DNA from: Eledone cirrhosa
Taxonomy: Eukaryota
Length of the DNA: 64,000 nucleotides
Assembly: GCA_964016885.1 (NCBI GenBank)
Contig: OZ024762.1
Location: 29,016,001 to 29,080,000 of the forward strand
Reading direction: 5' to 3'
Part shown: positions 20,112 to 64,000 of the stretch, piece after piece
Layout: each line of letters starts with the position of its first letter
Numbering within the stretch: the first letter of the stretch is position 1
Made by a program: the position numbers and the translations under genes
Notes under the pieces: model-generated
Database searches by the model: none
Seen by the model: only the letters and a program-made list of their open reading frames with translations
What the model was told of the DNA's origin: nothing

Positions 20112-20199
<88 letters not shown>

Positions 20200-22645: not shown

Positions 22646-23122
22646 TTAAGCCTTTGACATTTACATTACTCTATATATACTATTATATTTCCATGGTAAT
22701 GTCTTTATCTCACATAACATTTACATTACTCTATATATACTATTATATTTCCATGGTAATGTCTTTACCTCACATAATATCAAATCTGATATTATTTATA
22801 TTGAGAACAATACTTTAACATCAGTATGAGTGGCCAGTTACGAGTGGTTTAAAAAGAAAAAGAGGACAGAACTCTGGCCAGTTATTGCCGGTTTAAATGT
22901 TAAAGGGTTAACCCTTTAGCATTCACATTATTTTATATATACTATTATATTTTCATGGTAAAGGCTTTATCTCACATAATATTGAATCTATCAGATTTTG
23001 AAAGTATTTATTTTGAGAACAATACCTTAACATCAGTCTGAGCGACCAGTTACAGTCAGTTTCAACAGAAAGAGGTAGAGAATTCTGGCCAGTTTGGGCT
23101 GGTTTGGACACTAAAGGGTTAA
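22646..23122 (+). mobile_element. Two tandem piggyBac-type MITEs sharing one TTAA (22908-22911); the first has an internal 60-bp duplication
   Basis: AAAGGG-TTAA-CCCTTT junction; the unit CATTTACATT...CTCACATAA starts at both 22658 and 22718. Confidence 0.85.
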
Positions 23123-23220
23123 GCAACTTTCAGTGGATAATGTTCCAATTTCCTCTCTTTGGGATTAAATTTTGATTTTGATTAACATTTTTTCTAAGTT
23201 GTTTTCAAGCATTTTATAAA

Positions 23221-35200: not shown

Positions 35201-35580
35201 ATCTACCCATTTTTCAGCTAACATAATTCCTACACTACCCTGTCCGTTGTCATTTCCCACCCAGAAAAGTTTATAGCATCGTTCTTTACCCACGATGAAT
35301 CTGGCAGATCCCCCTCTCCACCTAGTCTCTTGAATACAACAAACATCAACTTCTTTACGTTCAAGCATCTCTACAACCTCATTTGAGCGACCTTTCAATG
35401 TGCCTACGTTCATGGTACCAACTCTAAGTTGGGAGGGTGGGATGGATGGGTTGGAGGGACAGGGAGGGGTGTGGGAGACGGGATTTTGTTGGTCATCTGT
35501 GTCTGAAATAAAGAGGGGTCCTTGTATTCTCGTCTTGCAGCAGGAGGTGAATTTGTCTTAATCTGTGACATTGTCATTGA
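32226..35580 (-). mobile_element. Near full-length decayed RTE-clade LINE, second subfamily
   Basis: ORF pieces 35413 to 32778 with APE and RT motifs, a (GAT)n tail, and multiple stops and frameshifts. Confidence 0.9.
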
Positions 35581-38296: not shown

Positions 38297-39295
38297 TTAA
38301 CCCTTTAGCATTTAAAGCGACTGTATCTGGCCAGAATTCTCTCACCTCTTTCTGTTCAAACTGGCTGTAACCAGCCGTTCATATTCATGTTAAGATAATT
38401 ATTTCTACTTTAGGCACAAGACCAGCAATTACCCAGTGCATTACTCAGATCGTAAAGGGCCGTAACTCTATGCTGGAAAGCATGGCGTCCGACCCTCCAC
38501 CGATACTGCCAACCCACCGCGCTTATTAATGTTAAGATAATGTTCTCAAAATAGATAATATCAAAATCTAATATATTCAATATTATGTTTCTACTTTTGG
38601 GGGCACAAGGCCAGCAATTACCCCAGTGTATTACTGGTACTTTATTTTATCGACCCCCGTAAGGATGAATGGCAAAGTTATCCTCGACGGGATTTGAACT
38701 CAGACCATAATATTAGGTGAGATAATTATGTGAGACTGGCAGTAATCGGTAGAGTGTCAGACATCATGTTTACGGCCCTTTATATTCTGAGTTCAAATCC
38801 CGCCGAGGTTAACTTTGCCTTTCATCCTTACATGGGTCGATAAAATAAAGTACCAGTAATGCACTGGAGGTAATTGCTGGATTGGACTGGCAGTAATCCG
38901 TAGAGCATCAGACACCATGTTTTGCAGCATAGAATTATGGCCCTTTACGTTCTGAGTTCAAATCCTGCTGAAGTTAGCTTTGCCTTTCATTCTTACGGAG
39001 GTCGATAAAATAAAGTACCAGTAATGCACTGGGGGTAATTGCTGGCTGGCCTTGTGCCAAAAGTAGAAACAATTATTATTATTGGATTGGCAGTAATCCG
39101 TAGAGTGTCAGACACCATGCTTTGCAGCATAGAGTTATGGCCCTTTACGTTCTGATTTCAAACCCGCCAAGGTTTGCCTTTCATTCTTATGGGGGGGGGG
39201 GGGTCAATAAGATAAAGTACCAGTAATGCACTGAGGTAATTCAGCAATTACCCCTGTGTATTACTGGTACCTTGTGCCAAATAGTAGAAACAATT
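38297..39295. mobile_element. piggyBac-type MITE fragment overrun by a SINE cluster (two minus-strand copies, three head-to-tail plus-strand copies)
   Basis: TTAACCCTTTAGC start; repeated GGCAGTAATC..GTTCAAATCC..GTACCAGTAATGCAC units. Confidence 0.75.
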
Positions 39296-41650: not shown

Positions 41651-41883
41651 TTCTAGAATGTCACCATTTACTAAAGACATTTATTTATAAATGGCATGAA
41701 ACACACATGTTCCTAATTGTTTAACTGTTTGGATACCAAACTGTCTGAATCAACTCTACCCCTTGAACTTGAACTGGCACTGTCGGTTACAATAATGAGT
41801 GTTCCAGTTGACACTATTACTGGAACAGCCTGCTCATGAAATTAACGTGCAAGTGGCTGAGTATTCCACAGACATGCATACCC

Positions 41884-42112
41884 TTAACCCTTTAGCATTT
41901 ACATTACTCCATATCTAATATTACATTTTTGTGGTAAAGGCTTTATCTTACATAATTATCTCACATAATATCAAATCTATGAGATTTTGATATTATATAT
42001 TTTGAGAACAATAACTTCACATAAGTATGAGCAGCCTGTTATGGCTGGTTTGAACAGAAAGATGTGAGAGAATTCTGGCCGGATATGGCCAGTTTAAATG
42101 CTAAAGGGTTAA
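41884..42112 (+). mobile_element. Intact piggyBac-type MITE inserted into a SINE; serves as the empty-target reference
   Basis: TIR CCCTTTAGCATTTA / TAAATGCTAAAGGG with TTAA duplicated on both sides. Confidence 0.9.
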
Positions 42113-42408
42113 CATAGCTCTCAGGGAGATTCAGCATGACACAGAGTGTGACAAGGCTGACCCTTTGAATTACAGGTACAACTCATTTTTGCCAGCTGAG
42201 TGAACTGGAAAAATATGAAATAAAGTGTCTTGCTCAAGGACACAACACTCCTCTGGTAAACAAACTCATGACCTTACGATTGTGAGGCGAATACTCTAAA
42301 CACAGAGCCACGCATCTTAGTTTATGATAAAATGTTTATAACTATCTTAAAACCTTCTATCCTAACTTTATGTAAGAACATTTGTTAAGTTATGTTTTAA
42401 CTCTTTAG

Positions 42409-42696
42409 CATTTACATTACTCTATATATACTATTGTATTTTCACAGTAAAGGCTTTACCTCACATAATATCTCACATAACATTTACATTACTCTATATA
42501 TACTATTGTATTGTCACAGTAAAGGCTTTACCTCACATAATATCTCACATAACATTTACATTACTCTATATATACTATTGTATTTTCACAGTAAAGGCTT
42601 TACCTCACATAATATCTCACATAACATTTACATTACTCTATATATACTCTTGTATTGTCACAGTAAAGGCTTTACCTCACATAATATCTCACATAA
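42409..42696 (+). repeat. 4 x 72-bp array of the MITE target segment
   Basis: Units start at 42409, 42481, 42553 and 42625. Confidence 0.97.
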
Positions 42697-42886
42697 CATC
42701 TCGTATACGAGAGACGTGTGTTGACGTGTGTGAACAAGCTCGGCTACCGATTAATTTTGATTAATTTTTTTATACTGTAATATACGTTAACCCCTTGCCT
42801 TGGTCGTCAAACCTTGAGTTTATTTATTTTCGCCCCTTTTTGGGGCGAATTTTCCAGTTAAAAACTTTTACGGCAAACTAATAGAA

Positions 42887-44608
42887 ATGGACGGAATTTT
42901 CACATCTCATCCTAACGTGAAAGCCACGCCCCCTAAGAAAGGTGATACAGAGAAGCTAGAAGCACAAGGCTCTAAGTCTTCCCTCCTCACTTCTGCAAAA
43001 GAAACATGGAACACGGAATTAAAAGAAAAATTTGTAAAAATGGGTGAAAACCCAGAAAGTCACATAAACGCAGACAAAAACAACAACGACAATAACAGCA
43101 ATAGTCACAACACCAACCAAGGAAAAAATAACGATAACACCAAACAAAGCGAACCCACTACTGGTGCCTCCTTTGCACAGGCGGTCCGGAAAACACAAAC
43201 CTGCAAGCAACTGGACATTACAACTCTGAGAGAAAAGATGAAGGAAGCGAAACAGTATGTAACTTTCAAAGAAGGAGGAGACTTCACAATCACCTCCCCA
43301 CAAGAAATCAAAAGAGACACGACGCTAAGAACGATATCTTTCAGAACAATTTCTAACATAACAAGGAAACCAACTCAATTATCCCAAAAAGAGATTGAGC
43401 TGGTCCTAAAAAATGTGTGGAGTGATATATCGTTCATACAAAAAGGGCCACTCTATGGGAATATAACGGTCCTAATGAAGGATCAATTGACGGCCAGGAA
43501 ATACTCTGTGGCGCCAATTGTTTCCAAGCTACATACATTTTTCCCCACATATTTAGGGAAAAGAACGCAGAAGATAAGGGTCTCCGGAATCCGGCCAAAT
43601 GCATGCATTTCCTGGGTACTAACAGGATTTTTAGAAGACGAGGACGGAATCCTTTCAGTAGGAGAAGTCACCACAGACGTTTTCGGCGGTTTGAGCGTGG
43701 AGGTTCTGGGCCAAATGAGACCAGAACGAATAGCTAGAATACCACAGAGGGTGTCCCTCGATGGAGAAACATTTATATATATTTCAGCCGAGGGTAGGAG
43801 GCCCATATGTTACTACTGTTCAAGCAGGGGTCATCTAAGGGCTGCTTGTCCTCAATTGACAAAAAAAAAGGCTCTTTTGCCTACACCCCACACACCACCA
43901 CCGCCACCACCACCACCACCACAACAACAACAAAAATAACACGGAAAAATAACACAAGACACGGCCCCACCCAAAACAACTCCCAAAACACACACAAATA
44001 CAACAAAACCCCAAAATACACCACTACCCGACAGCACGGACGAGGACCCAGCTGAAACGGCACCTAGTGACGAAGAGGGGGAACCCTTCCAACCTGTAAA
44101 AAGGAAAACAAGAAAGCACCACTCGAACATAAACGAAACAAACACACAACCACCAACAAAAACAAAACAAACAGAACAAACAAAATCCGCCCCGACCCAA
44201 AACATAACACATACAACAAAACGTAAGCACACACAAGAACAACAAACAAACACAACACAAATAAAACAGTATACATACATTAACACAAATAACAAAGAAC
44301 TCGTAAAAACAATACACAAAGACCCTTTGGTGGAAACTGAAGGGCAATTCTTTGCAAGCGCGGCCAACAAACCGCATTTAAAAATGATAAGACTCCCAAT
44401 GGACACCTATGCAAAACTAAGAGAGAACTTTCCTGAGGACGTGGGGAAAACATGTACTCGACCCTATAACCGCGTCCTCTTGAAACGTTTCCCCACCCAC
44501 ACCTCACCAAACACCCCCACTCCACCACAGAACAACACCCCACCAAACAACCCCTCCAATACGCCCATGGATATTGTGCAACCTGCTCCTCAGGAGCCGA
44601 ACAGGTAG
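42887..44608 (+). pseudogene. Tx1 ORF1, copy 1, with a nonsense codon
   Basis: TAA at 43937-43939 where copy 2 has CAA; zinc knuckle CYYCSSRGHLRAAC. Confidence 0.9.
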
Positions 44609-44629
44609 GTCCTTCCTCTTTTAACCAAC

Positions 44630-47600
44630 ATGGTTGATATAAGAGTTGGGTGTATGAATGTACGCGGCCTGGGACTGTCTTGGAAACAAGGCAAACTTTT
44701 AAACGATCTCAGGTCGCATAGAATGGACGTAATGGCTATTTGCGAGTCCAGGATCAGCAGCGAGCACCAACTGGCGCCCCTCTTCGACGACTTTGAGATC
44801 TTCGCATCTCTCTGTCAACCGGAGGGTGGGGGTGGAGTTGTCGTTCTGCTGCGAAAACACCTGGGCCTCGCCATACAGAAGGTGCACCTGGACCCGGAGG
44901 GTCGACTGGTGGTTTTAGACGTCGGCAGTAGTGAAAGTGGAGCCCTTAGACTAATAGCTGTGTACGCCCCTTTTTGGGCAGCACGGCCGGAATACTTCCA
45001 ACGTCTGGAAACTTTTCTGGGATCGTCCCGCTCCTTGCTTTTAGTGGGGGACTGGAATGGTATCCTGGATGCACGTTGGGACTATGTAGGGGCATGTGCC
45101 AATAGAGGGGGGTGTAAAAGCCTCAAAAGGTTAATCGGCCGATTTGACCTGGCCGATAGATATCGACTAGATTTTCCGACTGTACCACTATGGACGTGGA
45201 CCAATCGCAGTGGAACATCTAGGTCGTACCTAGATAGGGTCCTAGTTAGAGAGAAGGATTGGGACACATTTAGCTGTCCAAAAATGTTCATGGTTGACTA
45301 TTCGGATCACAAGTTAGTGACCTGCATAGCCAACCTTGATAGAACCCATAGACAGGGACCCGGTTACTGGAAGCTGAACTTGTCCTTACCGAGAAGCAAA
45401 GCTTACAGTAAACGGATTAGCACGTTAGTTAAGCAGAGTTTGACAGGGGCAATTGTCAACAACAGGTGGTGGAGCTCTCTTAAGAGAGCAATTAGAATAG
45501 AATCGATAGGTTTTAGTCAGGAATTAGCAAGGGATAGGAACAAGACGGAAAGGGAATTAGTAGATAGAGTAGAAGAGGCGATTAGGAGTGGCAATGTAGC
45601 CGGCGTGCTGGCATCAAGAATGGCCTTAGACCAGTTCTTTGAGGTGAAGCATGAAGGCTGCGTTGTCAGGAGTAAAATACGTGCTCTGGGTAATGAGGGA
45701 GCCAAAGCTGTGAGCTGGGCCCGAGTGACAGAGGCAAAAAGTGGGAACAAGTCCACGATTCGGTCTTTGAAGGACCAGGATGGGCGTGTGATCCTTGAAC
45801 CTGGGCAGATGTGTGCGGCCTTTCAGCGGCACTTTGCACGACTGTTCGAGAGGGGCGGCGCGCCGGGTGAGACTATGGATTTCAATCCATACCTCGACGG
45901 TCTGCCGCACCTCTCGGACGCGGAGGCGAAGTCCTACGAAAGGACGATTTCAGCTGCTGAGATAGGGGCGGCGCTGAGCCAATGCGGCAAACGCAAATCC
46001 CCGGGTGTCGATGGTCTACCATACGAGCTATATGTAGCGATGCCGGACTTGTTCTCCGATATCCTCGAAGCGGTCTACTGCAACTGGCAGCAGAACGGGA
46101 GAATTCCCAGTTCTGTGACCAAGGGCGTAGTTACGCTGGTGAGGAAGGATGAGAACAAGGGGGATGACATAAGTAACTTCAGGCCCATAACTCTGCTAAA
46201 TACAGAGTTAAAGATTTTGGCCAAGGTGTTAGCGAAGAGGTTGGCGCTTGTCGTTGGAAACCTGGTGGGAGAAGCGCAGACATGCGCAATCCCGTCCAGG
46301 TCCATTCACGACAATCTCCCCCTTATGCGATACATCATAGAGAGGGTAGGGAATGAACCCGGCTTTGGTGGGGCCCTGATCAACTTGGATCAATCTAAAG
46401 CTTTCGATAGGGTTGACCATCGTTACCTGGATGCGGTGCTCGCGGCAGCAGGCTTCGGACCCGTTTTCAGGGGTTGGATTGCTGCGATGCACAGCAGCAA
46501 CGTCTGCTCAAGGGTCAAGGTGAACGGCCACCTCTCGGAGCCGTTCCAAATCATGCGATCCATCCGACAGGGATGCCCTCTCTCCCCCCTACTGTATGTG
46601 CTGGCTCTTGAGCCACTACTGCGGAAGTTGGAGCGGTTGCAGGGCATCCCTTTGGAACCGGGATTGCAGAAAGCGGCGTCGGCCTACGCCGATGACGTGA
46701 CAGTAATGGTGTCGAAAACCTCGCAAATCGGTGAGATCGGCACCTTACTGGAGGAATATGAAAGGTTTACAGGAGCCAAGCTGAACCGGGACAAGTCCGT
46801 CGGTTTGCAACTCGGAACATGGAGAGGCAAACCGATGCCCTCCAACGACGTCGTCGGACGCTGGTTCGGACCAGACCTCCAGGTGGAGAAAAACTGGAAC
46901 GAGGTAACGGCCAGGGTGTTTGCACTCACCCAGAAGTGGGCCCAGTGCAAACTATCCCTGAAAGGTCGAGCGGAGGTGGCGAATACTTATATAGCATCCG
47001 TCATCTACTACCGCTTGACCGTCGTGCCTTGCCCAGTGAAAAGACTCGCCAAAATGGAGTGCGCGCTGTTCCAATTTCTTTGGAACAAGCGGACCCCTTT
47101 GGTGAGGAGATCCATCTGCTGTCAACACCCTTCGAAAGGAGGGCTGGGGATGCCGTGGCTACAGATGCGTAAACACGCATTAAGGCTACGGCACCTCCAG
47201 GTATTCCTCACCGGTCAACCGGTGTGGGCCCCGTTTGTGAGGCGAGCCTTTCCCAGACTCGTCTCGCTCACCGAGCTGCAATCCTGGGTCAAGCAAAGAC
47301 CGAGAAAAGTGGGCGACTGGCACATTGAATGTGCCCAGGTGCTCACGGCCCTCTGGAAAGCGGACCCGGCAATCAGTGGAGACTCCACGTCGACATTCTA
47401 TAGTGGGTTGGTACGCAGCAGGTGCGACCATGCTCTCGGAGAAGCTCTAGGCATGGAGGAAGATGAACTGGCCAGTCTGTTCGGTAGGACGTTTGGCCCT
47501 GGACCGATGGACAACTTCCAAAAGTCCCTGGCTTGGCAGTGCTACCGAGGGGCTCTACCCGTTCGAGACAAGCTCCACAGGCATGGGAGCCTGGGTAGAG

Positions 47601-48034
47601 ATCCTTTGAATAAGATCTGTCCGAGATGCGTGCATGATGACGAAACCGTTGCGCACGCATTCGTACACTGCCCAGGCATTGCTGACCTGTGGGGCTATGT
47701 GGAACGACTACTGTCGAGGGTGGGACCAATCCGGTTGACCACCGAGTCTATTGTCACGATCAAACCGCCTCCCCCTTTCAAAAACAAAGGAGAGGCGGTT
47801 TTTCTCTGTGTGGTAGCCATGGCTAAAGAAGTTGTATGGTGGACGAGGCTGAAAGGGCTGAGGTCAGACACCTTTCTCTCCGGCCAACAACTGGTCCCCT
47901 TTTTCAAATACCATTTTAAAAGAAGGATCAGAATGGAGAGAGAGGTGCTCTACCCCAGCAAGTTTTATGAAAGGTGGGTGAAAGTAGGGAGAATGGCCAG
48001 AGTGAATGGGTCTTCTCTCTATATCAGCCTGTAG
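44630..48034 (+). CDS. Tx1 ORF2, copy 1 (APE endonuclease, RT, C-terminal zinc finger), with an 11-aa deletion
   Basis: GDWN, YLDR, SDH, PGYWKLN, FRPITLLN, KAFDRV, RQGCPLSP, YADD, GGLG and CPRC..H..C motifs. Confidence 0.92.
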   Translation: MVDIRVGCMNVRGLGLSWKQGKLLNDLRSHRMDVMAICESRISSEHQLAPLFDDFEIFASLCQPEGGGGVVVLLRKHLGLAIQKVHLDPEGRLVVLDVGSSESGALRLIAVYAPFWAARPEYFQRLETFLGSSRSLLLVGDWNGILDARWDYVGACANRGGCKSLKRLIGRFDLADRYRLDFPTVPLWTWTNRSGTSRSYLDRVLVREKDWDTFSCPKMFMVDYSDHKLVTCIANLDRTHRQGPGYWKLNLSLPRSKAYSKRISTLVKQSLTGAIVNNRWWSSLKRAIRIESIGFSQELARDRNKTERELVDRVEEAIRSGNVAGVLASRMALDQFFEVKHEGCVVRSKIRALGNEGAKAVSWARVTEAKSGNKSTIRSLKDQDGRVILEPGQMCAAFQRHFARLFERGGAPGETMDFNPYLDGLPHLSDAEAKSYERTISAAEIGAALSQCGKRKSPGVDGLPYELYVAMPDLFSDILEAVYCNWQQNGRIPSSVTKGVVTLVRKDENKGDDISNFRPITLLNTELKILAKVLAKRLALVVGNLVGEAQTCAIPSRSIHDNLPLMRYIIERVGNEPGFGGALINLDQSKAFDRVDHRYLDAVLAAAGFGPVFRGWIAAMHSSNVCSRVKVNGHLSEPFQIMRSIRQGCPLSPLLYVLALEPLLRKLERLQGIPLEPGLQKAASAYADDVTVMVSKTSQIGEIGTLLEEYERFTGAKLNRDKSVGLQLGTWRGKPMPSNDVVGRWFGPDLQVEKNWNEVTARVFALTQKWAQCKLSLKGRAEVANTYIASVIYYRLTVVPCPVKRLAKMECALFQFLWNKRTPLVRRSICCQHPSKGGLGMPWLQMRKHALRLRHLQVFLTGQPVWAPFVRRAFPRLVSLTELQSWVKQRPRKVGDWHIECAQVLTALWKADPAISGDSTSTFYSGLVRSRCDHALGEALGMEEDELASLFGRTFGPGPMDNFQKSLAWQCYRGALPVRDKLHRHGSLGRDPLNKICPRCVHDDETVAHAFVHCPGIADLWGYVERLLSRVGPIRLTTESIVTIKPPPPFKNKGEAVFLCVVAMAKEVVWWTRLKGLRSDTFLSGQQLVPFFKYHFKRRIRMEREVLYPSKFYERWVKVGRMARVNGSSLYISL

Positions 48035-48271
48035 GTGAAAGAAGAGGAAAAAGAGGAGACGAGGGAAGCACCTACTCTTTGTGCTCCTGAGGAGAGGGGT
48101 TGCACATTTTTTCCGGGGTGTGTGCGACCCATGTTAATGCCCCCTCCCTATTGAGGACTTCGTTTGTTGTTGTTATTTCATTGTTATATTTTTGTACTCG
48201 TTAATTATATGTAAACTTCCCCCCTTGTATCTGTCCCTACCTTTTGTGCCCTAGTGGCAAATAAAGAAACC

Positions 48272-48693
48272 ACTCTATATATACTATTGTATTGTCACAG
48301 TAAAGGCTTTACCTCACATAATATCTCACATAACATTTACATTACTCTATATATACTATTGTATTGTCACAGTAAAGGCTTTACCTCACATAATATCTCA
48401 CATAACATTTACATTACTCTATATATACTATTGTATTGTCACAGTAAAGGCTTTACCTCACATAATATCTCACATAACATTTACATTACTCTATATATAC
48501 TATTGTATTGTCACAGTAAAGGTTTTACCTCACATAATACCTCACATAGCATTTACATTACTCTATATATACTATTGTATTGTCACAGTAAAGGCTTTAC
48601 CTCACATAATACCTCACATAGCATTTACATTACTCTATATATACTATTGTATTGTCACAGTAAAGGCTTTACCTCACATAATATCTCACATAA
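48272..48693 (+). repeat. 62-bp partial unit plus 5 x 72-bp array of the MITE target segment, between the two Tx1 copies
   Basis: Full units start at 48334, 48406, 48478, 48550 and 48622. Confidence 0.97.
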
Positions 48694-48907
48694 CATCTCG
48701 TATACGAGAGACGTGTGTTGACGTGTGTGAACAAGCTCGGCTACCGAGTCGGATTTACTTACTCAAAAAGTGAGTTTTGATTAATTTTTTTATACTGTAA
48801 TATACGTTAACCCCTTGCCTTGGTCGTCAAACTTTGAGTTTATTTATTTTCGCCCCTTTTTGGGGCGAATTTTCCAGTTAAAAATTTATTACGGCAAACT
48901 AATAGAA

Positions 48908-50650
48908 ATGGACGGAATTTTCACATCTCATCCTAACGTGAAAGCCACGCCCCCTAAGAAAGGTGATACAGAGAAGCTAGAAGCACAAGGCTCTAAGTCT
49001 TCCCTCCTGACTTCTGCAAAAGAAACATGGAACACGGAATTAAAAGAAAAATTTGTAAAAATGGGTGAAAACCCAGAAAGTCACATAAACGCAGACAAAA
49101 ACAACAACGACAATAACAGCAATAGTCACAACACCAACCAAGGAAAAAATAACGATAACACCAAACAAAGCGAACCCACTACTGGTGCCTCCTTTGCACA
49201 GGCGGTCCGGAAAACACAAACCTGCAAGCAACTGGACATTACAACTCTGAGAGAAAAGATGAAGGAAGCGAAACAGTATGTAACTTTCAAAGAAGGAGGA
49301 GACTTCACAATCACCTCCCCACAAGAAATCAAAAGAGACACGACGCTAAGAACGATATCTTTCAGAACAATTTCCAACATAACAAGGAAACCAACTCAAT
49401 TATCCCAAAAAGAGATTGAGCTGGTCCTAAAAAATGTGTGGAGTGATATATCGTTCATACAAAAAGGGCCACTCTATGGGAATATAACGGTCCTAATGAA
49501 GGATCAATTGACGGCCAGGAAATACTCTGTGGCACCAATTGTTTCCAAGCTACATACATTTTTCCCCACATATTTAGGGAAAAGAACGCAGAAGATAAGG
49601 GTCTCCGGAATCCGGCCAAATGCATGCATTTCCTGGGTACTAACAGGATTTTTAGAAGACGAGGACGGAATCCTCTCAGTAGGAGAAGTCACCACAGACG
49701 TTTTCGGCGGTTTGAGCGTGGAGGTTCTGGTCCAAATGAGACCAGAACGAATAGCTAGAATACCACAGAGGGTGTCCCTCGATGGAGAAACATTTATATA
49801 TATTTCAGCCGAGGGTAGGAGGCCCATATGTTACTACTGTTCAAGCAGGGGTCATCTAAGGGCTGCTTGTCCTCAATTGACAAAAAAAAAGGCTCTTTTG
49901 CCTACACCCCACACACCACCACCGCCACCACCACCACCACCACCACCTCCACCACCACCACCACAACAACAACAAAAACAACAGGGAAAAATAACACAAG
50001 ACACGGCCCCACCCAAAACAACTCCCAAAACACACACAAATACAACAAAACCCCAAAATACACCACTACCCGACAGCACGGACGAGGACCCAGCGGAAAC
50101 GGCACCTAGTGACGAAGAGGGGGAACCCTTCCAACCTGTAAAAAGGAAAAAAAGAAAGCACCACTCGAACATAAACGAAACAAACACACAACCACCAACA
50201 AAAACAAAACAAACAGAACAAACAAAATCCGCCCCACCCCAAAACATAACACATACAACAAAACGTAAGCACACACAAGAACAACAAACAAACACAACAC
50301 AAATAAAACAGTATACATACATTAACACAAATAACAAAGAACTAGTAAAAACAATACACAAAGACCCTTTGGTGGAAACTGAAGGACAATTCTTTGCAAG
50401 CGCGGCCAACAAACCGCATTTAAAAATGATAAGACTCCCAATGGACACCTATGCAAAACTAAGAGAGAACTTTCCTGAGGACGTGGGGAAAACATGTACT
50501 CGACCCTATAACCGCGTCCTCTTGAAACGTTTCCCCACCCACACCTCACCAAACACCCCCACTCCACCACAGAACAACACCCCACCAAACAACCCCTCCA
50601 ATACGCCCATGGATATTGTGCAACCTGCTCCTCAGGAGCCGAACAGGTAG
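48908..50650 (+). CDS. Tx1 ORF1 (580 aa from ATG; CCHC zinc knuckle, Pro/Thr-rich tail)
   Basis: Open frame; SFAQAV motif, CYYCSSRGHLRAAC and a basic KRKKRK stretch. Confidence 0.92.
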   Translation: MDGIFTSHPNVKATPPKKGDTEKLEAQGSKSSLLTSAKETWNTELKEKFVKMGENPESHINADKNNNDNNSNSHNTNQGKNNDNTKQSEPTTGASFAQAVRKTQTCKQLDITTLREKMKEAKQYVTFKEGGDFTITSPQEIKRDTTLRTISFRTISNITRKPTQLSQKEIELVLKNVWSDISFIQKGPLYGNITVLMKDQLTARKYSVAPIVSKLHTFFPTYLGKRTQKIRVSGIRPNACISWVLTGFLEDEDGILSVGEVTTDVFGGLSVEVLVQMRPERIARIPQRVSLDGETFIYISAEGRRPICYYCSSRGHLRAACPQLTKKKALLPTPHTPPPPPPPPPPPPPPPPQQQQKQQGKITQDTAPPKTTPKTHTNTTKPQNTPLPDSTDEDPAETAPSDEEGEPFQPVKRKKRKHHSNINETNTQPPTKTKQTEQTKSAPPQNITHTTKRKHTQEQQTNTTQIKQYTYINTNNKELVKTIHKDPLVETEGQFFASAANKPHLKMIRLPMDTYAKLRENFPEDVGKTCTRPYNRVLLKRFPTHTSPNTPTPPQNNTPPNNPSNTPMDIVQPAPQEPNR

Positions 50651-50671
50651 GTCCTTCCTCTTTTAACCAAC

Positions 50672-53600
50672 ATGGCTGATATAAGAGTTGGGTGTCTGAA
50701 TGTACGTGGCCTGGGACTGTCTTGGAAACAAGGCAAACTTTTAAACGATCTCAGGTCGCATAGAATGGATGTAATGGCTATTTGCGAGTCCAGGATCAGC
50801 AGCGAGCACCAACTGGCGCCCCTCTTCGACGACTTTGAGATCTTCGCATCTCTCTGTCAACCGGGGGGTGGGGGTGGAGTTGTCGTTCTGCTGCGAAAAC
50901 ACCTGGGCCTCGCCATACAGAAGGTGCACCTGGACCCGGAGGGTCGACTGGTGGTTTTAGACGTCGGCAGTAGTGAAAGTGGAGCCCTTAGACTAATAGC
51001 TGTGTACGCCCCTTTTTGGGCAGCGCGGCCGGAATACTTCCAACGTCTGGAAACTTTTCTGGGAACGTCCCGCTCCTTGCTTTTAGTGGGGGACTGGAAT
51101 GGTATCCTGGATGCACGTTGGGACTATGTAGGGGCATGTGCCAATAGAGGGGGGTGTAAAAGCCTCAAAAGGTTAATCGGCCGATTTGACCTGGCCGATA
51201 GATATCGACTAGATTTTCCGACTGTACCACTATGGACGTGGACCAATCGCAGTGGAACATCTAGGTCGTACCTAGATAGGGTCCTAGTTAGAGAGAACGA
51301 TAGGGACACATTTAGCTGTCCAAAAATGTTCATGGTTGACTATTCGGATCACAAGTTAGTGACCTGCATAGCCAACCTTGATAGAACCCATAGACAGGGA
51401 CCCGGTTACTGGAAGCTGAACTTGTCCTTACCGAGAAGCAAAGCTTACAGTAAACGGATTAGCACGTTAGTTAAGCAGAGTTTGACAGGGGCAATTGTCA
51501 ACAACAGGTGGTGGAGCTCTCTTAAGAGAGCAATTAGAATAGAATCGATAGGTTTTAGTCAGGAATTAGCAAGGGATAGGAACAAGACGGAAAGGGAATT
51601 AGTAGATAGAGTAGAAGAGGCGATTAGGAGTGGCAATGTAGCCGGCGTGCTGGCATCAAGAATGGCCTTAGACCAGTTCTTTGAGGTGAAGCATGAAGGC
51701 TGCGTTGTCAGGAGTAAAATACGTGCTCTGGGTAATGAGGGAGCCAAAGCTGTGAGCTGGGCCCGAGTGACAGAGGCAAAAAGTGGGAACAAGTCCACGA
51801 TTCGGTCTTTGAAGGACCAGGATGGGCGTGTGATCCTTGAACCTGGGCAGATGTGTGCGGCCTTTCAGCGGCACTTTGCACGACTGTTCGAGAGGGGCGG
51901 CGCGCCGGGTGAGACTATGGATTTCAATCCATACCTCGACGGTCTGCCGCGCCTCTCGGACGCGGAGGCGAAGTCCTGCGAAAGGACGATTTCAGCTGCT
52001 GAGATAGGGGCGGCGCTGAGCCAATGCGGCAAACGCAAATCCCCGGGTCTCGATGGTCTACCATACGAGCTATATGTAGCGATGCCGGACTTGTTCTCCG
52101 ATATCCTCGAAGCGGTCTACTGCAACTGGCAGCAGAACGGGAGAATTCCCAGTTCTGTGACCAAGGGCGTAGTTACGCTGGTGAGGAAGGATGAGAACAA
52201 GGGGGATGACATAAGTAACTTCAGGCCCATAACTCTGCTAAATACAGAGTTAAAGATTTTGGCCAAGGTGTTAGCGAAGAGGTTGGCGCTTGTCGTTGGA
52301 AACCTGGTGGGAGAAGCGCAGACATGCGCAATCCCGTCCAGGTCCATTCACGACAATCTCCACCTTATGCGATACATCATAGAGAGGGTAGGGAATGAAC
52401 CCGGCTTTGGTGGGGCCCTGATCAACTTGGATCAATCTAAAGCTTTCGATAGGGTTGACCATCGTTACCTGGATGCGGTGCTCGCGGCGGCAGGCTTCGG
52501 ACCCGTTTTCAGGGGTTGGATTGCTGCGATGCACAGCAGCAACGTCTGCTCAAGGGTCAAGGTGAACGGCCACCTCTCGGAGCCGTTCCAAATCATGCGA
52601 TCCATCCGACAGGGATGCCCTCTCTCCTCCCTACTGTATGTGCTGGCTCTTGAGCCACTACTGCGGAAGTTGGAGCGGTTGCAGGGCATCCCTTTGGAAC
52701 CGGGATTGCAGAAAGCGGCGTCGGCCTACGCCGATGACGTGACAGTAATGGTGTCGAAAACCTCGCAAATCGGTGAGATCGGCACCTTACTGGAGGAATA
52801 TGAAAGGTTTACAGGAGCCAAGCTGAACCGGGACAAGTCCGTCGGTTTGCAACTCGGAACATGGAGAGGCAAACTGATGCCCTCCAACGACGTCATCGGA
52901 CGCTGGACGGAGGGCCCGGTGAAGCTGCTTGGGGTCTGGTTCGGACCAGACCTCCAGGTGGAGAAAAACTGGAACGAGGTAACGGCCAGGGTGTTTGCAC
53001 TCACCCAGAAGTGGGCCCAGTGCAAACTATCCCTGAAAGGTCGAGCGGAGGTGGCGAATACTTATATAGCATCCGTCATCTACTACCGCTTGACCGTCGT
53101 GCCTTGCCCAGTGAAAAGACTCGCCAAAATGGAGTGCGCGCTGTTCCAATTTCTTTGGAACAAGCGGACCCCTTTGGTGAGGAGATCCATCTGCTGTCAA
53201 CACCCTTCGAAAGGAGGGCTGGGGATGCCGTGGCTACAGATGCGTAAACACGCATTAAGGCTACGGCACCTCCAGGTATTCCTCACCGGTCAACCGGTGT
53301 GGGCCCCGTTTGTGAGGCGAGCCTTTCCCAGACTCGTCTCGCTCACCGAGCTGCAATCCTGGGTCAAGCAAAGACCGAGAAAAGTGGGCGACTGGCACAT
53401 TGAATGTGCCCAGGCGCTCACGGCCCTCTGGAAAGCGGACCCGGCAATCAGTGGAGACTCCACCTCGACATTCTATAGAGGGTTGGTACGCAGCAGGTGC
53501 GACGATGCTCTCGGAGAAGCTCTAGGCATGGAGGAAGATGAACTGGCCAGTCTGTTCGGTAGGACGTTTGGCCCTGGACCGATGGACAACTTCCAAAAGT

Positions 53601-54109
53601 CCCTGGCTTGGCAGTGCTACCGAGGGGCTCTACCCGTTCGAGACAAGCTCCACAGGCATGGGAGCCTGGGTAGAGATCCTTTGAATAAGATCTGTCCGAG
53701 ATGCGTGCATGATGACGAAACCGTTGCGCACGCATTCGTACACTGCCCAGGCATTGCTGACCTGTGGGGCTATGTGGAACGACTACTGTCGAGGGTGGGA
53801 CCAATCCGGTTGACCACCGAGTCCATTGTCACGATCAAACCGCCTCCCCCTTTCAAAAACGAAGGAGAGGCGGTTTTTCTCTGTGTGGTAGCCATGGCTA
53901 AAGAAGTTGTATGGTGGACGAGGCTGAAAGGGCTGAGGTCAGACACCTTTCTCTCCGGCCAACAACTGGTCCCCTTTTTCAAATACCATTTTAAAAGAAG
54001 GATCAGAATGGAGAGAGAGGTGCTCTACCCCAGCAAGTTTTATGAAAGGTGGGTGAAAGTAGGGAGAATGGCCAGAGTGAATGGGTCTTCTCTCTATATC
54101 AGCCTGTAG
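50672..54109 (+). CDS. Tx1 ORF2 (1145 aa; APE, RT, zinc finger)
   Basis: Full motif set as in copy 1, and it retains WTEGPVKLLGVWF. Confidence 0.95.
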   Translation: MADIRVGCLNVRGLGLSWKQGKLLNDLRSHRMDVMAICESRISSEHQLAPLFDDFEIFASLCQPGGGGGVVVLLRKHLGLAIQKVHLDPEGRLVVLDVGSSESGALRLIAVYAPFWAARPEYFQRLETFLGTSRSLLLVGDWNGILDARWDYVGACANRGGCKSLKRLIGRFDLADRYRLDFPTVPLWTWTNRSGTSRSYLDRVLVRENDRDTFSCPKMFMVDYSDHKLVTCIANLDRTHRQGPGYWKLNLSLPRSKAYSKRISTLVKQSLTGAIVNNRWWSSLKRAIRIESIGFSQELARDRNKTERELVDRVEEAIRSGNVAGVLASRMALDQFFEVKHEGCVVRSKIRALGNEGAKAVSWARVTEAKSGNKSTIRSLKDQDGRVILEPGQMCAAFQRHFARLFERGGAPGETMDFNPYLDGLPRLSDAEAKSCERTISAAEIGAALSQCGKRKSPGLDGLPYELYVAMPDLFSDILEAVYCNWQQNGRIPSSVTKGVVTLVRKDENKGDDISNFRPITLLNTELKILAKVLAKRLALVVGNLVGEAQTCAIPSRSIHDNLHLMRYIIERVGNEPGFGGALINLDQSKAFDRVDHRYLDAVLAAAGFGPVFRGWIAAMHSSNVCSRVKVNGHLSEPFQIMRSIRQGCPLSSLLYVLALEPLLRKLERLQGIPLEPGLQKAASAYADDVTVMVSKTSQIGEIGTLLEEYERFTGAKLNRDKSVGLQLGTWRGKLMPSNDVIGRWTEGPVKLLGVWFGPDLQVEKNWNEVTARVFALTQKWAQCKLSLKGRAEVANTYIASVIYYRLTVVPCPVKRLAKMECALFQFLWNKRTPLVRRSICCQHPSKGGLGMPWLQMRKHALRLRHLQVFLTGQPVWAPFVRRAFPRLVSLTELQSWVKQRPRKVGDWHIECAQALTALWKADPAISGDSTSTFYRGLVRSRCDDALGEALGMEEDELASLFGRTFGPGPMDNFQKSLAWQCYRGALPVRDKLHRHGSLGRDPLNKICPRCVHDDETVAHAFVHCPGIADLWGYVERLLSRVGPIRLTTESIVTIKPPPPFKNEGEAVFLCVVAMAKEVVWWTRLKGLRSDTFLSGQQLVPFFKYHFKRRIRMEREVLYPSKFYERWVKVGRMARVNGSSLYISL

Positions 54110-54570
54110 GTGAAAGAAGAGGAAAAAGCGGAGACGAGGGAAGCACCTACTCTTTGTGCTCCTGAGGAGAAGGGTTACACATTTTTTCCGGTGTGTGTGC
54201 GACCCATGTTAATGCCCCCTCCCTATTGAGGACTTCGTTTGTTGTTGTTATTTCATTGTTATATTTTTGTACTCGTTAATTATATGTAAACTTCCCCCCT
54301 TGTATCTGTCCCTACCTTTTGTGCCCTAGTGGCAAATAAAGAAACCACTCTATATATACTATTATATTTTCACAGTAAAGACTTTACTTCACATAATATC
54401 TCACATAATATCGAATCTATGAGATTTTGATATTATTTATTTTGAGAACAATACCATAACATAAGTATGAATGACCAGTAACGGTCGATTTGAACAGAAA
54501 GAGGAGATAGAATTCTAGCCGGATACGGCCGGTTTAAATGCTAAAGGGTTAACTGATTTGTTTATTAATT

Positions 54571-55053
54571 ACACTGGTCAAAAAAATGTTGCTTTTTTCT
54601 GCTGACCTAAGTTTGAGATGTGTTCTTGAGTAATTAGGGACCCCTGAGTTTACAAATGACAACACTTTTTCCTATCATGTCAAGTTTTTTTTTTTAAATC
54701 TCTGGGCTGGTCGATATTGGCCCCACCCATAGCTTCAACAGATAGGACTCCGCTCATGACACGTATTGCTAACTTAGGTTTTGTTGTTGTTGTTCAACTA
54801 ATTTTGAGGTGCTGATGTCATATATGGCATCCCCTCCGCCCCACACCAGTCTGTCATTCTATAGCACATTCCTATGTTGTTATGTACTGTATGAATAATA
54901 TAATTTTGTTGACCAGGGGTAGCCATGTTTCCTGTGTTTATCGGATAAGTCAAACCTGAGAACTTGATGTGTTAGCAAACAATGGATGACATATTTGAAC
55001 TCAGCATCTCTAAATTAGCTTAAAACAACTGTAAAAGCTGTGTGGACCAGTGT
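54571..55053. mobile_element. Possible non-autonomous DNA transposon
   Basis: Short inverted termini ACACTGGTC / GACCAGTGT; family not identified. Confidence 0.35.
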
Positions 55054-55062
55054 TACTTATCG

Positions 55063-56960
55063 CAGAAACTGGTGCAGTAATACATCAACCCCAGTGCAGT
55101 AATACATCAACCCCAGTGCAGAAACTGGTGCAGTAATACATCAACCCCAGTGCAGTAATACATCAACCCCAGTGCAGAAACTGGTGCAGTAATACATCAA
55201 CCCCAGTGCAGTAACTGGTGCAGTAATACGTCAACCCCAGTGCAGTAATACATCAACCCCAGGGCAGAAACTGGTGCAGTAATACATCAACCCCAGTGCA
55301 GAAACTGGTGCAGTAATACATCAACCCAGTGCAGAAACTGGTGCAGTAATACATCAACCCCAGAGCAGAAACTGGTGCAGTAATACATCAACCCCAGTGC
55401 AGAAACTGGTGCAGTAATACATCAACCCCAGTGCAGTAATACATCAACCCCAGTGCAGTAATACACCAACCCCAGTGCATAAACTGGTGCAGTAATACAT
55501 CAACCCCAGTGCAGAAACTGGTGCAGTAATACATCAACCCCAGTGCAGTAATACATCAACCCCAGTGCAGTAATACATCAACCCCAGTGCAGTAATACAT
55601 CAACCCCAGTGCAGTAATACATCAACCCCAGTGCAGTAATACATCAACCCCAGTGCAGAAACTGGTGCAGTAATACATCAACCCCAGTGCAGAAACTGGT
55701 GCAGTAATACATCAACCCCAGTGCAGTAATACATCAACCCCAGTGCAGAAACTGGTGCAGTAATACATCAACCCCAGTGCAGAAACTGGTGCAGTAATAC
55801 ATCAACCCCAGTGCAGTAATACATCAACCCCAGTGCAGTAATACATCAACCCCAGTGCAGAAACTGGTGCAGTAATACATCAACCCCAGTGCAGTAACTG
55901 GTGCAGTAATACATCAACCCCAGTGCAGTAACTGGTGCAGTAATACATCAACCCCAGTGCAGAAACTGGTGCAGTAATACATCAACCCCAGTGCAGTAAT
56001 ACATCAACCCCAGTGCAGTAACTGGTGCAGTAATACATCAACCCCACTGCAGAAACTGGTGCAGTAATACATCAACCCCAGTGCAGAAACTGGTGCAGTA
56101 ATACATCAACCCCAGTGCAGTAATACATCAACCCCAGTGCAGAAACTGGTGCAGTAATACATCAACCCCAGTGCAGTAATACATCAACCCTAGTGCAGAA
56201 ACTGGTGCAGTAATACATCAACCCCAGTGCAGTAACTGGTGCAGTAATACATCAACCCCAGTGCAGTAACTGGTGCAGTAATACATCAACCCCAGTGCAG
56301 TAACTGGTGCAGTAATACATCAACCCCAGTGCAGTAATACATCAACCCCAGTGCAGAAACTGGTGCAGTAATACATCAACCCCAGTGCAGTAACTGGTGC
56401 AGTAATACATCAACCCCAGTGCAGTAATACATCAACCCCAGTGCAGAAACTGGTGCAGTAATACATCAACCCCAGTGCAGTAACTGGTGCAGTAATACAT
56501 CAACCCCAGTGCAGAAACTGGTGCAGTAATACATCAACCCCAGTGCAGAAACTGGTGCAGTAATACATCAACCCCAGTGCAGTAACTGGTGCAGTAATAC
56601 ATCAACCCCAGTGCAGTAATACATCAACCCCAGTGCAGTAATACATCAACCCCAGTGCAGAAACTGGTGCAGTAATACATCAACCCCAGTGCAGTAACTG
56701 GTGCAGTAATACATCAACCCCAGTGCAGTAATACATCAACCCCAGTGCAGTAATACATCAACCCCAGTGCAGAAACTGGTGCAGTAATACATCAACCCCA
56801 GTGCAGTAACTGGTGCAGTAATACATCAACCCCAGTGCAGTAACTGGTGCAGTAATACATCAACCCCAGTGCAGTAATACATCAACCCCAGTGCAGTAAT
56901 ACATCAACCCCAGTGCAGAAACTGGTGCAGTAATACATCAACCCCAGGGCAGAAACTACT
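55063..56960. repeat. Two-module minisatellite: 22-bp GTGCAGTAATACATCAACCCCA with or without 12-bp GTGCAG(A/T)AACTG
   Basis: Irregular alternation of 22- and 34-bp units. Confidence 0.95.
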
Positions 56961-57239: not shown

Positions 57240-60200
57240 CTAAAGTCTGTCTTAAACCAGAAGGATGTTAGGCCGGTAGTTATCCTGGTTTCATGGTGTG
57301 AAGTGACTGAGAGTACAAGACTTCCCCCTGGACAGGACACCAGTCCATCACAGGGTTATGTTAAGTCTAAAGTCTGTCTTAAACCAGAAGGATGTTAGGC
57401 CGGTAGTTATCCTGGTTTCATGGTGTGAAGTGACTGAGAGTACAAGACTTCCCCCTGGACAGGACACCAGTCCATCACAGGGTAATGTTAAGTCTAAAGT
57501 CTGTCTTAAGCGAGAAGAATGTTAGGCCAGTACGTATCCTGGTTTCATGGTGTGAAGTGACTGAGAGTACAAGACTTCCCCCTGGACAGGACACCAGTCC
57601 ATCACAGGGTTATGTTAAGTCTAAAGTCTGTCTTAAACCAGAAGGATGGTAGGCCGGTAGTTATCCTGGTTTCATGGTGTGAAGTGACTGAGAGTACAAG
57701 ACTTCCTCCTGGACAGGACACCAGTCCATCACAGGGTTATGTTAAGTCTAAAGTCTGTCTTAAGCCAGAAGGATGTTAGGCCGGTACTTATCCTGGTTTC
57801 ATGGTGTGAAGTGACTGAGAGTACAAGACTTCCCCCTGGACAGGACACCAGTCCATCACAGGGTTATGTTAAGTCTAAAGTCTGTCTTAAACCAGAAAGA
57901 TGTTAGGCCGGTACTTATCCTGGTTTCATGGTGTGAAGTGACTGAGAGTACAAGACTTCCCCCTGGACAGGACACCAGTCCATCACAGGGTTATGTTAAG
58001 TCTAAAGTCTGTCTTAAACCAGAAGGATGTTAGGCCGGTACTTATCCTGGTTTCATGGTGTGAAGTGACTGAGAGTACAAGACTTCCCCCCTGGACAGAA
58101 CACCAGTCCATCACAGGGTTATGTTAAGTCTAAAGTCTGTCTTAAGCCAGAAGGATGTTAGACCGGTAGTTATCCTGGTTTCATGGTGTGAAGTGACTGA
58201 GAGTACAAGACTTCTCCCTGGACAGGACACCAGTCCATCACAGGGTTATGTTAAGTCTAAAGTCTGTCTTAAACCAGAAGGATGTTAGGCCGGTAGTTAT
58301 CCTGGTTTCATGGTGTGAAGTGACTGAGAGTATAAGACTTCCCCCTGGACAGGACACCAGTCCATCACAGGATTATATTAAGTCTAAAGTCTGTCTTAAG
58401 CCAGAAGGATGTTTGGCCGGTACTTATCCTGGTTTCATGGTGTGAAGTGACTGAGAGTACAAGACTTCCCCCTGGACAGGACACCAGTCCATCACAGGGT
58501 TATGTTAAGTCTAAAGTCTGTCTTAAACCAGAAGGATGTTAGGCCGGTAGTTATCCTTGTTTCATGCTGTGAAGTGACTGAGAGTACAAGACTTCCCCCT
58601 GGACAGGACACCAGTCCATCACAGGGTTATATTAAATCTAAAGTCTGTCATAAGCCAGAAGGATGTTAGGCTGGTACTTATCCTGGTTTCATGGTGTGAA
58701 GTGACTGAGAGTACAAGACTTCCCCCTGGACAGGACACCACCCCATCACAGGGTTATGTTAAGTCTAAAGTCTGTCTTAAACCAGAAGGATGTTAGGCCG
58801 GTAGTTATCCTTGTTTCATGGTGTGAAGTGACTGAGAGTACAAGACTTCCCCCTGGACAGGACACCAGTCCATCACAGGGTTATATTAAGTCTAAAGTCT
58901 GTCTTAAGCCAGAAGGATGTTAGGCTGGTACTTATCCTGGTTTCATGGTGTGAAGTGACTGAGAGTACAAGACTTCCCCCTGGACAGGACACCAGTCCAT
59001 CACAGGGTTATATTAAGTCTAAAGTCTGTCTTAAGCCAGAAGGATGTTAGGCCGGTAGTTATCCTGGTTTCATGGTGTGAAGTGACTGAGAGTACAAGAC
59101 TTCCCCCTGGACAGGACACCAGTCCATCACAGGGTTATATTAAGTCTAAAGTCTGTCTTAAGCCAGAAGGATGTTAGGCCGATACTTATCCTGGTTTCAT
59201 GGTGTGAAGTGACTGAGAGTACAAGACTTCCCCCTGGACAGGACACCAGTCCATCACAGGGTTATATTAAGTCTAAAGTCTGTCTTAAGCCAGAAGGATG
59301 TTAGGCCGGTACTTATCCTGGTTTCATGGTGTGAAGTGACTGAGAGTACAAGACTTCCCCCTGGACAGGACACCAGTCCATCACAGGGTAATGTTAAGTC
59401 TAAAGTCTGTCTTAAGCCAGAAGGATGTTAGGCCGGTACTTATCCTGGTTTCATGGTGTGAAGTGACTGAGAGTACAAGACTTCCCCCTGGACAGGACAC
59501 CAGTCCATCACAGGGTTATGTTAAGTCTAAAGTCTGTCTTAAACCAGAAGGATGTTAGGCCGGTACTTATCCTGGTTTCATGGTGTGAAGTGACTGAGAG
59601 TACAAGACTTCCTCCTGGACAGGACACCAGTCCATCACAGGGTTATGTTAAGTCTAAAGTCTGTCTTAAACCAGAAGGATGTTAGGCCGGTACTTATCCT
59701 GGTTTCATGGTGTGAAGTGACTGAGAGTACAAGACTTCCTCCTGGACAGGACACCAGTCCATCACAGGGTTATGTTAAGTCTAAAGTCTGTCTTAAACCA
59801 GAAGGATGTTAGGCCGGTACTTATCCTGGTTTCATGGTGTGAAGTGACTGAGAGTACAAGACTTCCTCCTGGACAGGACACCAGTCCATCACAGGGTTAT
59901 GTTAAGTCTAAAGTCTGTCTTAAACCAGAAGGATGTTAGGCCGGTACTTATCCTGGTTTCATGGTGTGAAGTGACTGAGAGTACAAGACTTCCCCCCTGG
60001 ACAGGACACCAGTCCATCACAGGGTAATGTTAAGTCTAAAGTCTGTCTTAAACCAGAAGGATGTTAGGCCGGTAGTTATCCTGGTTTCATGGTGTGAAGT
60101 GACTGAGAGTACAAGACTCCCCCTGGACAGGACACCAGTACATCACAGGGTTATGTTAAGTCTAAACTCTGTCTTAAACCAGAAGGATGTTAAGCTGGTA

Positions 60201-63200: not shown

Positions 63201-64000
63201 TATGTTAAGTCTAAAGTCTGTCTTAAACCAGAAGGATGTTAGGCCGGTAGTTATCCTTGTTTCATGGTGTGAAGTGACTGAGAGTACAAGACTTCCCCCT
63301 GGACAGGACACCAGTCCATCACAGGGTTATATTAAGTCTAAAGTCTGTCTTAAGCCAGAAGGATGTTAGGCCGGTACTTATCCTGGTTTCATGGTGTGAA
63401 GTGACTGAGAGTACAAGACTTCCCCCTGGACAGGACACCAGTCCATCACAGGGTTATATTAAGTCTAAAGTCTGTCTTAAGCCAGAAGGATGTTAGGCCG
63501 GTAGTTATCCTGGTTTCATGGTGTGAAGTGACTGAGAGTACAAGACTTCCCCCTGGACAGGACACCAGTCCATCACAGGGTTATATTAAGTCTAAAGTCT
63601 GTCTTAAGCCAGAAGGATGTTAGGCCGATACTTATCCTGGTTTCATGGTGTGAAGTGACTGAGAGTACAAGACTTCCCCCTGGACAGGACACCAGTCCAT
63701 CACAGGGTTATATTAAGTCTAAAGTCTGTCTTAAGCCAGAAGGATGTTAGGCCGGTACTTATCCTGGTTTCATGGTGTGAAGTGACTGAGAGTACAAGAC
63801 TTCCCCCTGGACAGGACACCAGTCCATCACAGGGTAATGTTAAGTCTAAAGTCTGTCTTAAGCCAGAAGGATGTTAGGCCGGTACTTATCCTGGTTTCAT
63901 GGTGTGAAGTGACTGAGAGTACAAGACTTCCCCCTGGACAGGACACCAGTCCATCACAGGGTTATGTTAAGTCTAAAGTCTGTCTTAAACCAGAAGGATG
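57240..64000. repeat. 127-bp SINE-derived satellite (about 53 copies, runs off the window) with higher-order structure
   Basis: Period 127 (57241, 57368, 57495); diagnostic variants recur at 8-, 9-, 17- and 18-monomer spacings. Confidence 0.96.

Follow-up and report, generated by a model that had tools for sequence, protein, structure and literature searches.

A 72-bp repeat array interrupted by two L1/Tx1-type elements in Eledone cirrhosa most likely belongs to its host MITE

Endonucleases of the APE type (L1-like) usually leave short target-site duplications (TSDs), and Tx1L leaves one of 23 bp. The cutting and joining of the second strand is the least understood step of LINE insertion. The rotifer element R9 carries a restriction-like endonuclease. 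In Xenopus, Tx1L is described as inserting into Tx1D, a non-autonomous piggyBac-type transposon (PMC4494074, PMC1950540). The crocodilian Tx1-Mar and SINEU elements target the old and abundant Mariner-N4_AMi, with tandem sequential insertion and truncation of the target site; one SINEU subfamily has a 5′ extension derived from the target, and a single TSD of 16 bp lies between tandem copies (PMC4494074). R2 RNAs that include upstream 28S sequence, in an earwig, a sow bug and a springtail, go with uniform 5′ junctions (PMC3774820; also PMC13580325), and the springtail R2 with a uniform 7-bp target deletion (PMC3774820). Utopia families show a TSD, none, or a probable deletion (PMC4640811). Arrays inside MITEs were described in Donax (DTC84; PMC3879986) and in Xenopus (Xstir and miDNA4; PMC12628747), with a distinct last unit (PMC3879986). 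For cephalopods, the annotation of Octopus vulgaris lists 13 recently active L1-Tx1 families, and one of its passages on Tx1 is silent on targets (PMC13282606).

The locus described here lies in a stretch of 64,000 nt of Eledone cirrhosa DNA, the whole of which was analysed (the window). As in the Tx1L/Tx1D pair, an APE-type element with two ORFs occupies a fixed site within a non-autonomous DNA transposon of the TTAA type. It is unlike Tx1L, as far as a comparison by description goes, in that the insertion shows either the loss of 7 bp or a 62-bp repeat that is imperfect, and in that the target site lies within a repeated unit. With Tx1-Mar/SINEU it shares an old DNA transposon as target, tandem sequential insertions and target truncation; however, a multi-unit target array is not among the features drawn from that account (PMC4494074). 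Like DTC84, Xstir and miDNA4, the host MITE has fixed ends with a varying number of units inside, a last unit that stands apart and a palindrome in each unit, whereas here the palindrome is mid-unit (+29..+41), the variants look locus-specific, and the unit holds a retrotransposon target. In the openly available main texts searched, neither this element family nor an array of target units beside the 5′ end of a Tx1 element was described. Each ingredient is known, and their combination was likewise not described in those texts.

Positions 48272–48693 consist of 62 bp plus five units of 72 bp (TRF call: 48272–48696, period 72, 5.9 copies, 98% matches), and a sister array of four units precedes the first of two elements, E1 and E2 (Table 1). 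Positions were counted from the 3′ junction ACATT/ACTC that E1 and E2 share, the first A of ACTC being +1. The 72-bp unit corresponds to −10..+62 of a TTAA-flanked MITE. The motif at the unit junctions had nine matches in the window and none in 100 shuffles, so it is not a product of chance; in bacterial and archaeal genomes it had no match, as expected. The +29..+41 region of every unit (42440–42459 in unit 1) is a 13-bp interrupted palindrome, GTAAAG-N-CTTTAC, which also resembles the MITE terminal repeat in inverted orientation. The host difference at +35 alters only its central base.

Table 1. Coordinates of the host MITE, its repeat units, the two elements and an element-free comparison copy
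Feature	Position	Strand	Remark
Host MITE left end	42397..42418	+	TTAA; terminal inverted repeat carrying a single C>T change; leads into unit 1
Units 1–4 of the array (MITE −10..+62)	42409..42696	+	+23 = T, G, T, G
CAT, read as the first 3 bases of unit 5	42697..42699	+	the following 7 bases (TTACATT) are missing at the element junction
Element E1	42700..48271	+	called a full-length L1/Tx1-type non-LTR retrotransposon
Remainder of unit 5 (+1..+62), as read here, and units 6–10	48272..48693	+	+53 C and +62 G common to two adjacent units
CAT, read as the first 3 bases of unit 11	48694..48696	+	7-bp gap as at E1
Element E2	48697..54346	+	both ORFs open
Terminal unit 11 (+1..+62), as read here; the 'true 3′ flank'	54347..54408	+	3 fixed differences from units 1–10
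Rest of the host MITE to the right terminal inverted repeat and TTAA	54409..54552	+	host differs at 22 of 216 sites from the majority of 5 other copies
Element-free MITE copy with local 60-bp tandem duplication (22658–22777)	22646..22911	+	junction same as in the arrays

The MITE family of the host is ~215–230 bp long and non-coding, with TTAA at both ends and inverted CCCTTTAGCATTTA termini; it is thus a short non-coding sequence with terminal inverted repeats and a fixed TSD, as is usual for a MITE, and from its TTAA and CCC ends we take it to be piggyBac-like. The left end of the host matches the MITE left ends at 41884, 22908 and 4021 (−). The window holds seven MITE copies or fragments. 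Six of them could be aligned and were 7–21% apart, and the host differed from the majority of the five others at 22 of 216 sites (10%). The number of internal units varied, also where nothing else had been inserted: one in three intact copies, two at 22646 and 11 at the host, while two further copies were without the left part.

Several of these copies have peculiarities of their own. At 22646–23122, two MITEs stand head to tail with one TTAA in common (22908–22911), the first having a 10-bp internal deletion besides its 60-bp duplication. An intact single-unit copy at 41884–42112, 285 bp upstream of the host, has two mismatches in the target region and no insertion. The fragment at 38297–38745 (−), without the left part, has two SINE-like interruptions, one of them just past the doubled CTCACATAA motif. 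A decayed RTE-type element (15114–~18900, −) with a (TGA)n tail ends exactly at ACTC of the MITE copy at 14909–15113 (−); the missing left 22 bp of that copy were not found within 15100–22000 at up to four mismatches.

The window as a whole is very repeat-rich. It also contains RT-encoding non-LTR fragments at 8545–10377 (−) and 32778–35557 (−), RT-RNase H fragments of an LTR-type retroelement at 29810–31140 (−), and a PHD finger after the RT in the elements at 32.8–35.6 kb and 15.7–18.3 kb. Long minisatellites with periods of 3–16, 20, 61, 22/34 and 127 occupy 137–2899, 13779–14632, 23220–25480, 55062–56957 and 57240–64000. The 61-bp minisatellite unit has a stretch resembling the end of the RTE ORF near 15530–15550, and other arrays in the window may therefore also have been derived from mobile elements.

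E1 and E2 lie head to tail. Their alignment has 44 differences in 5572 sites (0.79%), and indels add a further 78 bp in total. ORF1 of E2 (48908–50650, 580 aa) has one putative CCHC knuckle, and its ORF2 (50672–54109, 1145 aa) has the order APE endonuclease-RT-zf-RVT (Pfam PF03372, PF00078 and PF13966). An AATAAA at 54335 ends 6 bp before the 3′ junction, and neither element has a poly(A) tail. In E1, ORF1 is interrupted by a stop codon at 43937, and compared with E2 it is short of 23+1 bp in the 5′ UTR, 21 bp in ORF1 and 33 bp in ORF2. The 23 bp missing from its 5′ UTR (42751–42755 against 48748–48774 in E2) form a short hairpin in E2. Short hairpins are abundant in both 5′ UTRs, and folds of the unit, the 5′ UTRs and the left part of the MITE, taken without a shuffle control, gave short hairpins only. 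A perfect 14-bp palindrome stands at the 5′ end of the elements (48696..48709, also 42699–42712); the window has 15 palindromes of that length, so this one is not unusual.

The best solved-structure match of ORF2 was human L1 ORF2p (E = 6.5e-53), with R2 at 3e-23. The ORF1 knuckle reads C-x2-C-x4-H-x4-C (zf-CCHC E = 0.007, weaker than the curated cut-off); its Atlas neighbours were CCHC proteins, and Mollusca was the commonest phylum of the ORF1 look-alike cluster. The protein search returned 89 homologues, one at 70% identity and many at ~40%; no named Tx1 reference was among them or in the PDB search. The two-ORF layout, with APE, RT and a C-terminal zinc-binding motif in ORF2, is that of the Tx1/L1 group. 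On these sequence features, E1 and E2 are called L1/Tx1-type non-LTR retrotransposons, the label Tx1 being our assumption from architecture, targeting and familiar motifs. As in the Tx1 clade, both copies are inserted at one fixed site of a repeat family; the short TSD of that clade was not seen.

The sequence directly before both elements is CTCACATAA CAT. Where a unit junction is intact it is CTCACATAA CATTTACATT ACTC, and in a single-unit MITE CTCACATAA is followed by TATC. E1 and E2 each sit between CACATAACAT on the left and ACTCTAT on the right, with 7 bp (TTACATT) missing. No short direct repeat was present at either element junction. When both elements were taken out, the units closed into one continuous, in-phase array of 11 units within the MITE, with the identical 7-bp gap at both junctions. 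The unit-start CAT and the 7-bp gap at each junction mean that no 62-bp TSD is needed. E1 probably occupies unit 5 and E2 the terminal unit 11, the apparent '62-bp TSD' being the preceding unit, and we infer that the CAT before each element belongs to the unit and not to the element. A 62-bp TSD with an element that begins with CAT is a formally possible parse, which needs a chance match of the first three bases of the element to the start of the unit. The geometry that fitted best, an array already in place and a 7-bp deletion at the target, was not among the three options of the first-pass annotation, which made no choice between them and took its functional suggestions from the element-borne one. 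The 3′ junction in the MITE unit was identical in the two copies, which may not be independent, and no third copy of the element was found in the 64,000 nt.

The 62-bp segment that had been read as duplicated across each element is indeed present on both sides. Its status as a TSD does not follow, given that 10 bp lying upstream of the 3′ junction are also part of the unit, and that both elements come after CAT. A true 62-bp TSD at this locus, later multiplied by unequal exchange that also duplicated the element, is very unlikely in our view. It would account for the 62-bp segments on both flanks of each element and for the local states common to host and units; the ORF2 differences between E1 and E2 look neutral, and long TSDs do exist, such as the 126 bp of R9 (cited in bioRxiv 10.1101/2022.05.23.493040). 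The locus resembles R9 in having a long direct repeat beside a site-specific non-LTR element (bioRxiv 10.1101/2022.05.23.493040). Unlike in an R9-type TSD, the flanking repeats are not identical, as those of a young insertion should be, and no long direct repeats were found that are identical and copied from the local target. The copies differ at 3 of 62 sites against an element divergence of 0.79% (P = 0.013 if the full rate applies and 0.002 if half of it does), and every unit has 3–7 differences per 62 bp from the 3′ flank (P ≤ 0.013), which disfavours this option. Nor can a TSD supply the 10 upstream bases (−10..−1) of each unit, and the CAT after +62 is the start of a unit, not the TAT of the MITE. 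For unequal exchange to duplicate the element, a crossover would have had to fall within the first 17 bp of the flank, and the synonymous excess in ORF1 and the arrays' being out of register, both given below, also speak against it.

A false join in the assembly, in which two alleles of one insertion were placed in tandem, is scarcely credible. The difference of 0.79% is a plausible allelic level and the surroundings are rich in repeats. However, E1 is followed from +18 by sequence of the array type, not of the flank type, so that the false join would have had to rest on a 17-bp overlap, and the unique flanks are not duplicated.

The pattern of differences between E1 and E2 was also considered. 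In ORF1, 8 of 13 differences were synonymous (context-matched null mean 3.8, P = 0.004), compared with 6 of 23 in ORF2 (P = 0.75) and 14 of 36 in both ORFs together (P = 0.13). The sequences lean, not firmly, towards two separately evolving masters and two retrotransposition events; with no synonymous excess in ORF2 and a weak one overall, E1 and E2 may not be independent.

The evidence on the origin of the units comes from one filled locus and six other MITE copies. The earlier statement that the units differ from the 3′ flank (54347–54408) at three sites was correct for +18 (G/A), +35 (G/A) and +42 (C/T), which separate all 10 units from the flank, and too low as a total for most of them. 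All six units of 48272–48693 also differ at +23 (G vs T), giving 4–7 sites, with two at further sites; exactly three differences were found only in units 1 and 3 of the left array. Likewise, the reading TAGCATTT at two junctions, previously likened to the MITE terminal repeat, was recovered at two of the eight internal junctions of both arrays (48541–48563 and 48613–48635). These do not count as two independent joins: the adjacent units also share +53 T>C, which indicates one event, copied once.

These three fixed differences raise the possibility that the array was carried in by the element, like the upstream co-transcripts of R2. A master in an array-bearing MITE would be transcribed from near the left end of that MITE, its RNA would carry at least one unit, the cDNA end would pair in register with the 10 bp that lie upstream of the nick, and the pasted donor units would serve as fresh targets. 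We regard this as somewhat unlikely. In its support, all 10 units differ from the local flank at the three fixed sites, with the switch to the donor type within 42403–42435, and E2 adjoins the unique right part. The 5′ junctions are base-identical in both copies, with target-like sequence that differs from the local flank, which a local array explains equally well. There are precedents: a 22-bp duplication of downstream 28S with three substitutions in the earwig R2, whose RNA can propagate variation (PMC3774820), and the 5′ extension of SINEU-2B derived from its Mariner target (PMC4494074). The locus is like R2 in its uniform 5′ junctions, in apparent target duplications that are off by a few substitutions and in a 7-bp deletion as in the springtail. 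R2 differs in having a restriction-like endonuclease and an HDV-like ribozyme, and its duplications, in the reports consulted, are mostly single, 13–28 bp long and in homogeneous rDNA (PMC3774820). No HDV-like ribozyme was found here, which weighs against an R2-like route: Rfam gave no match at E ≤ 1 over 41800–54700, and our own descriptor, which is uncalibrated, gave none in both array and 5′ UTR regions. It is possible that an RNA carried only the last unit or a few bases, which would have guided the 5′ joining. The earlier suggestion that the units provide homology for this joining may hold.

Import by the element would require a donor that by chance shared two features with the host. CA at +27/28 was present in the units and the host and absent from all five other copies, and the exact 12-bp sub-repeat of host and units had an extra base in all three other double-motif copies. 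Among the six MITE copies, the host flank was the closest to unit 1 (three substitutions, no indel). The earlier clue to a local origin therefore held, strengthened by this exact sub-repeat and by the element-free duplication at 22658–22777. CACAG, on which that clue had been built, is common to units and host as stated; the other copies are not all CATGG (four of the five that cover the site, the fifth being TGTGG). It is a weak clue when taken alone, since CACAG, CATGG and TGTGG would be alternative CpG-decay products of one ancestral site. The states shared by host and units could mark a MITE subfamily outside the six other copies in the window.

The units differed from each other by 2.4% on average, three times the 0.79% between the elements, so the array looks older than the split of E1 and E2. 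The left array, set against each run of four consecutive units of the right one (three registers), had 6, 8 and 8 differences against 2.0 expected (P = 0.015–0.001); the test presumes no turnover of the array after insertion, and later turnover could weaken it. Arrays so far out of register argue against the transport of whole arrays by the elements, and also against one plain duplication that took in an element together with its array. The last units of the two arrays differ at one site. With unit 1 as the ancestor, the mean was 1.4 changes per unit and the terminal unit had three (P = 0.17), which is unremarkable if the array predates the insertions. The suggestion that the units are renewable monomers gathered from successive hosts was contradicted, as dispersed MITE copies are 7–21% apart and the units 2.4%. 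The addition of one host unit per generation was excluded on the same ground: units from different hosts would be 7–21% apart, yet they are homogeneous.

The duplication at 22658–22777 is not yielded by import with an element. It contains the ninth match of the junction motif, in an element-free MITE (22709–22731), which the first-pass annotation did not include. In this MITE the 12-bp sub-repeat is present in its single form, which makes the unit 60 bp long. The two copies of that unit are alike at all but 1 of 50 sites and have in common three states absent from all six comparison sequences, which indicated that the duplication arose locally. The chance that both breakpoints coincide between this copy and the arrays was ~7e-4. 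Microhomology at the breakpoints was 0–2 bp, and ordinary slippage does not account for their recurrence in two MITE copies. The right breakpoint falls where the last CTCACATAA motif ends, and the 12/13-bp sub-repeat of the MITE itself breaks at that point too, which hints at a hot spot intrinsic to the MITE.

The recurrent breakpoints could instead be the work of the element, whose endonuclease (and RT) would cut or re-prime at −10 and +62; repeated abortive rounds, in which no element is left behind, would build the array in place and with it new targets. The same breakpoints in two structurally different MITE copies with such short microhomology are consistent with that, as are their position on either side of the insertion site and the local type of the units. 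The RTE at 15113 is unrelated to E1 and E2 and uses their junction (ACTC) in a third MITE copy, which hints that this junction is an often-nicked site. However, the element junctions observed (0 and −7) do not coincide with −10; on the bottom strand, the G^C found at −10 is unlike the T^A of the actual junction, judged by the nick preference of L1; and the coincidence of the CTCACATAA end with the sub-repeat breakpoint points to the MITE-intrinsic hot spot. We consider this explanation clearly unlikely.

The array most likely belongs to the host MITE rather than to the retrotransposon. As for its history, we lean modestly towards a minisatellite that grew in the host MITE and was then struck twice by a target-specific element, with a 7-bp deletion each time. 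A MITE segment that starts 10 bp upstream of where the element was later to insert, and that closes with the last CTCACATAA motif, would first have duplicated in tandem in place, as at 22658–22777. Judging from the variant patterns, slippage or unequal exchange would then have expanded and reshuffled the internal units to ~11, and the terminal unit, tied as it is to the unique sequence on its right, would have diverged independently. At ACATT/ACTC, where the junctions are observed, an L1/Tx1-type element would have nicked the bottom strand (GAGT^AATG there) and primed reverse transcription at the nick; its 5′ end would have been joined 7 bp upstream, with the loss of TTACATT. A filled single-unit MITE would accordingly be expected to read ...TTTAGCAT up to the element. 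Scored against the host-side sequence, the target region −7..+12 had no mismatch in the array units and in both units at 22646, and 1–3 mismatches in the three intact single-unit copies; by this measure no target in the window is better preserved than those of the array. With every unit a near-consensus target, insertions in unit 5 and unit 11 would follow. E1 and E2 most likely represent two retrotransposition events, and the array would have served the element as a cluster of intact targets.

Growth of the array in the host is supported by the in-phase 11-unit array with the same gap at both junctions, by the local element-free duplication with an identical junction, and by the CA at +27/28 and the exact sub-repeat in units and host; the synonymous excess in ORF1 fits two separate masters. 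Besides the limits given above, three points stand against it. The three fixed sites separate all 10 units, the leftmost included, from the terminal unit, as import would predict. An element in the terminal unit is required under import and has a chance of about 2 in 11 under growth in the host, unless the array grew later. A fixed 7-bp deletion (n = 2) is unusual for such endonucleases.

We also put forward, tentatively, that element and array feed each other, through units borne on the RNA or through duplication of −10..+62 in place by the enzymes of the element. Each round would add near-consensus targets and in-register homology for 5′ joining, making a landing pad in a dead DNA transposon with head-to-tail stacking; in the enzymatic version, 22658–22777 would be a footprint without an element. 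Were this true, a retrotransposon that makes its own target array would link the birth of a minisatellite to retrotransposition. If instead the array grew in the host, as we favour, an apparent long TSD can be an illusion produced by insertion into a repeat, and a minisatellite in an old MITE would have become the preferred refuge of a site-specific retrotransposon whose other targets had decayed. The locus would then also present an APE-type element whose target deletion is fixed, a case with a bearing on the cutting and joining of the second strand.
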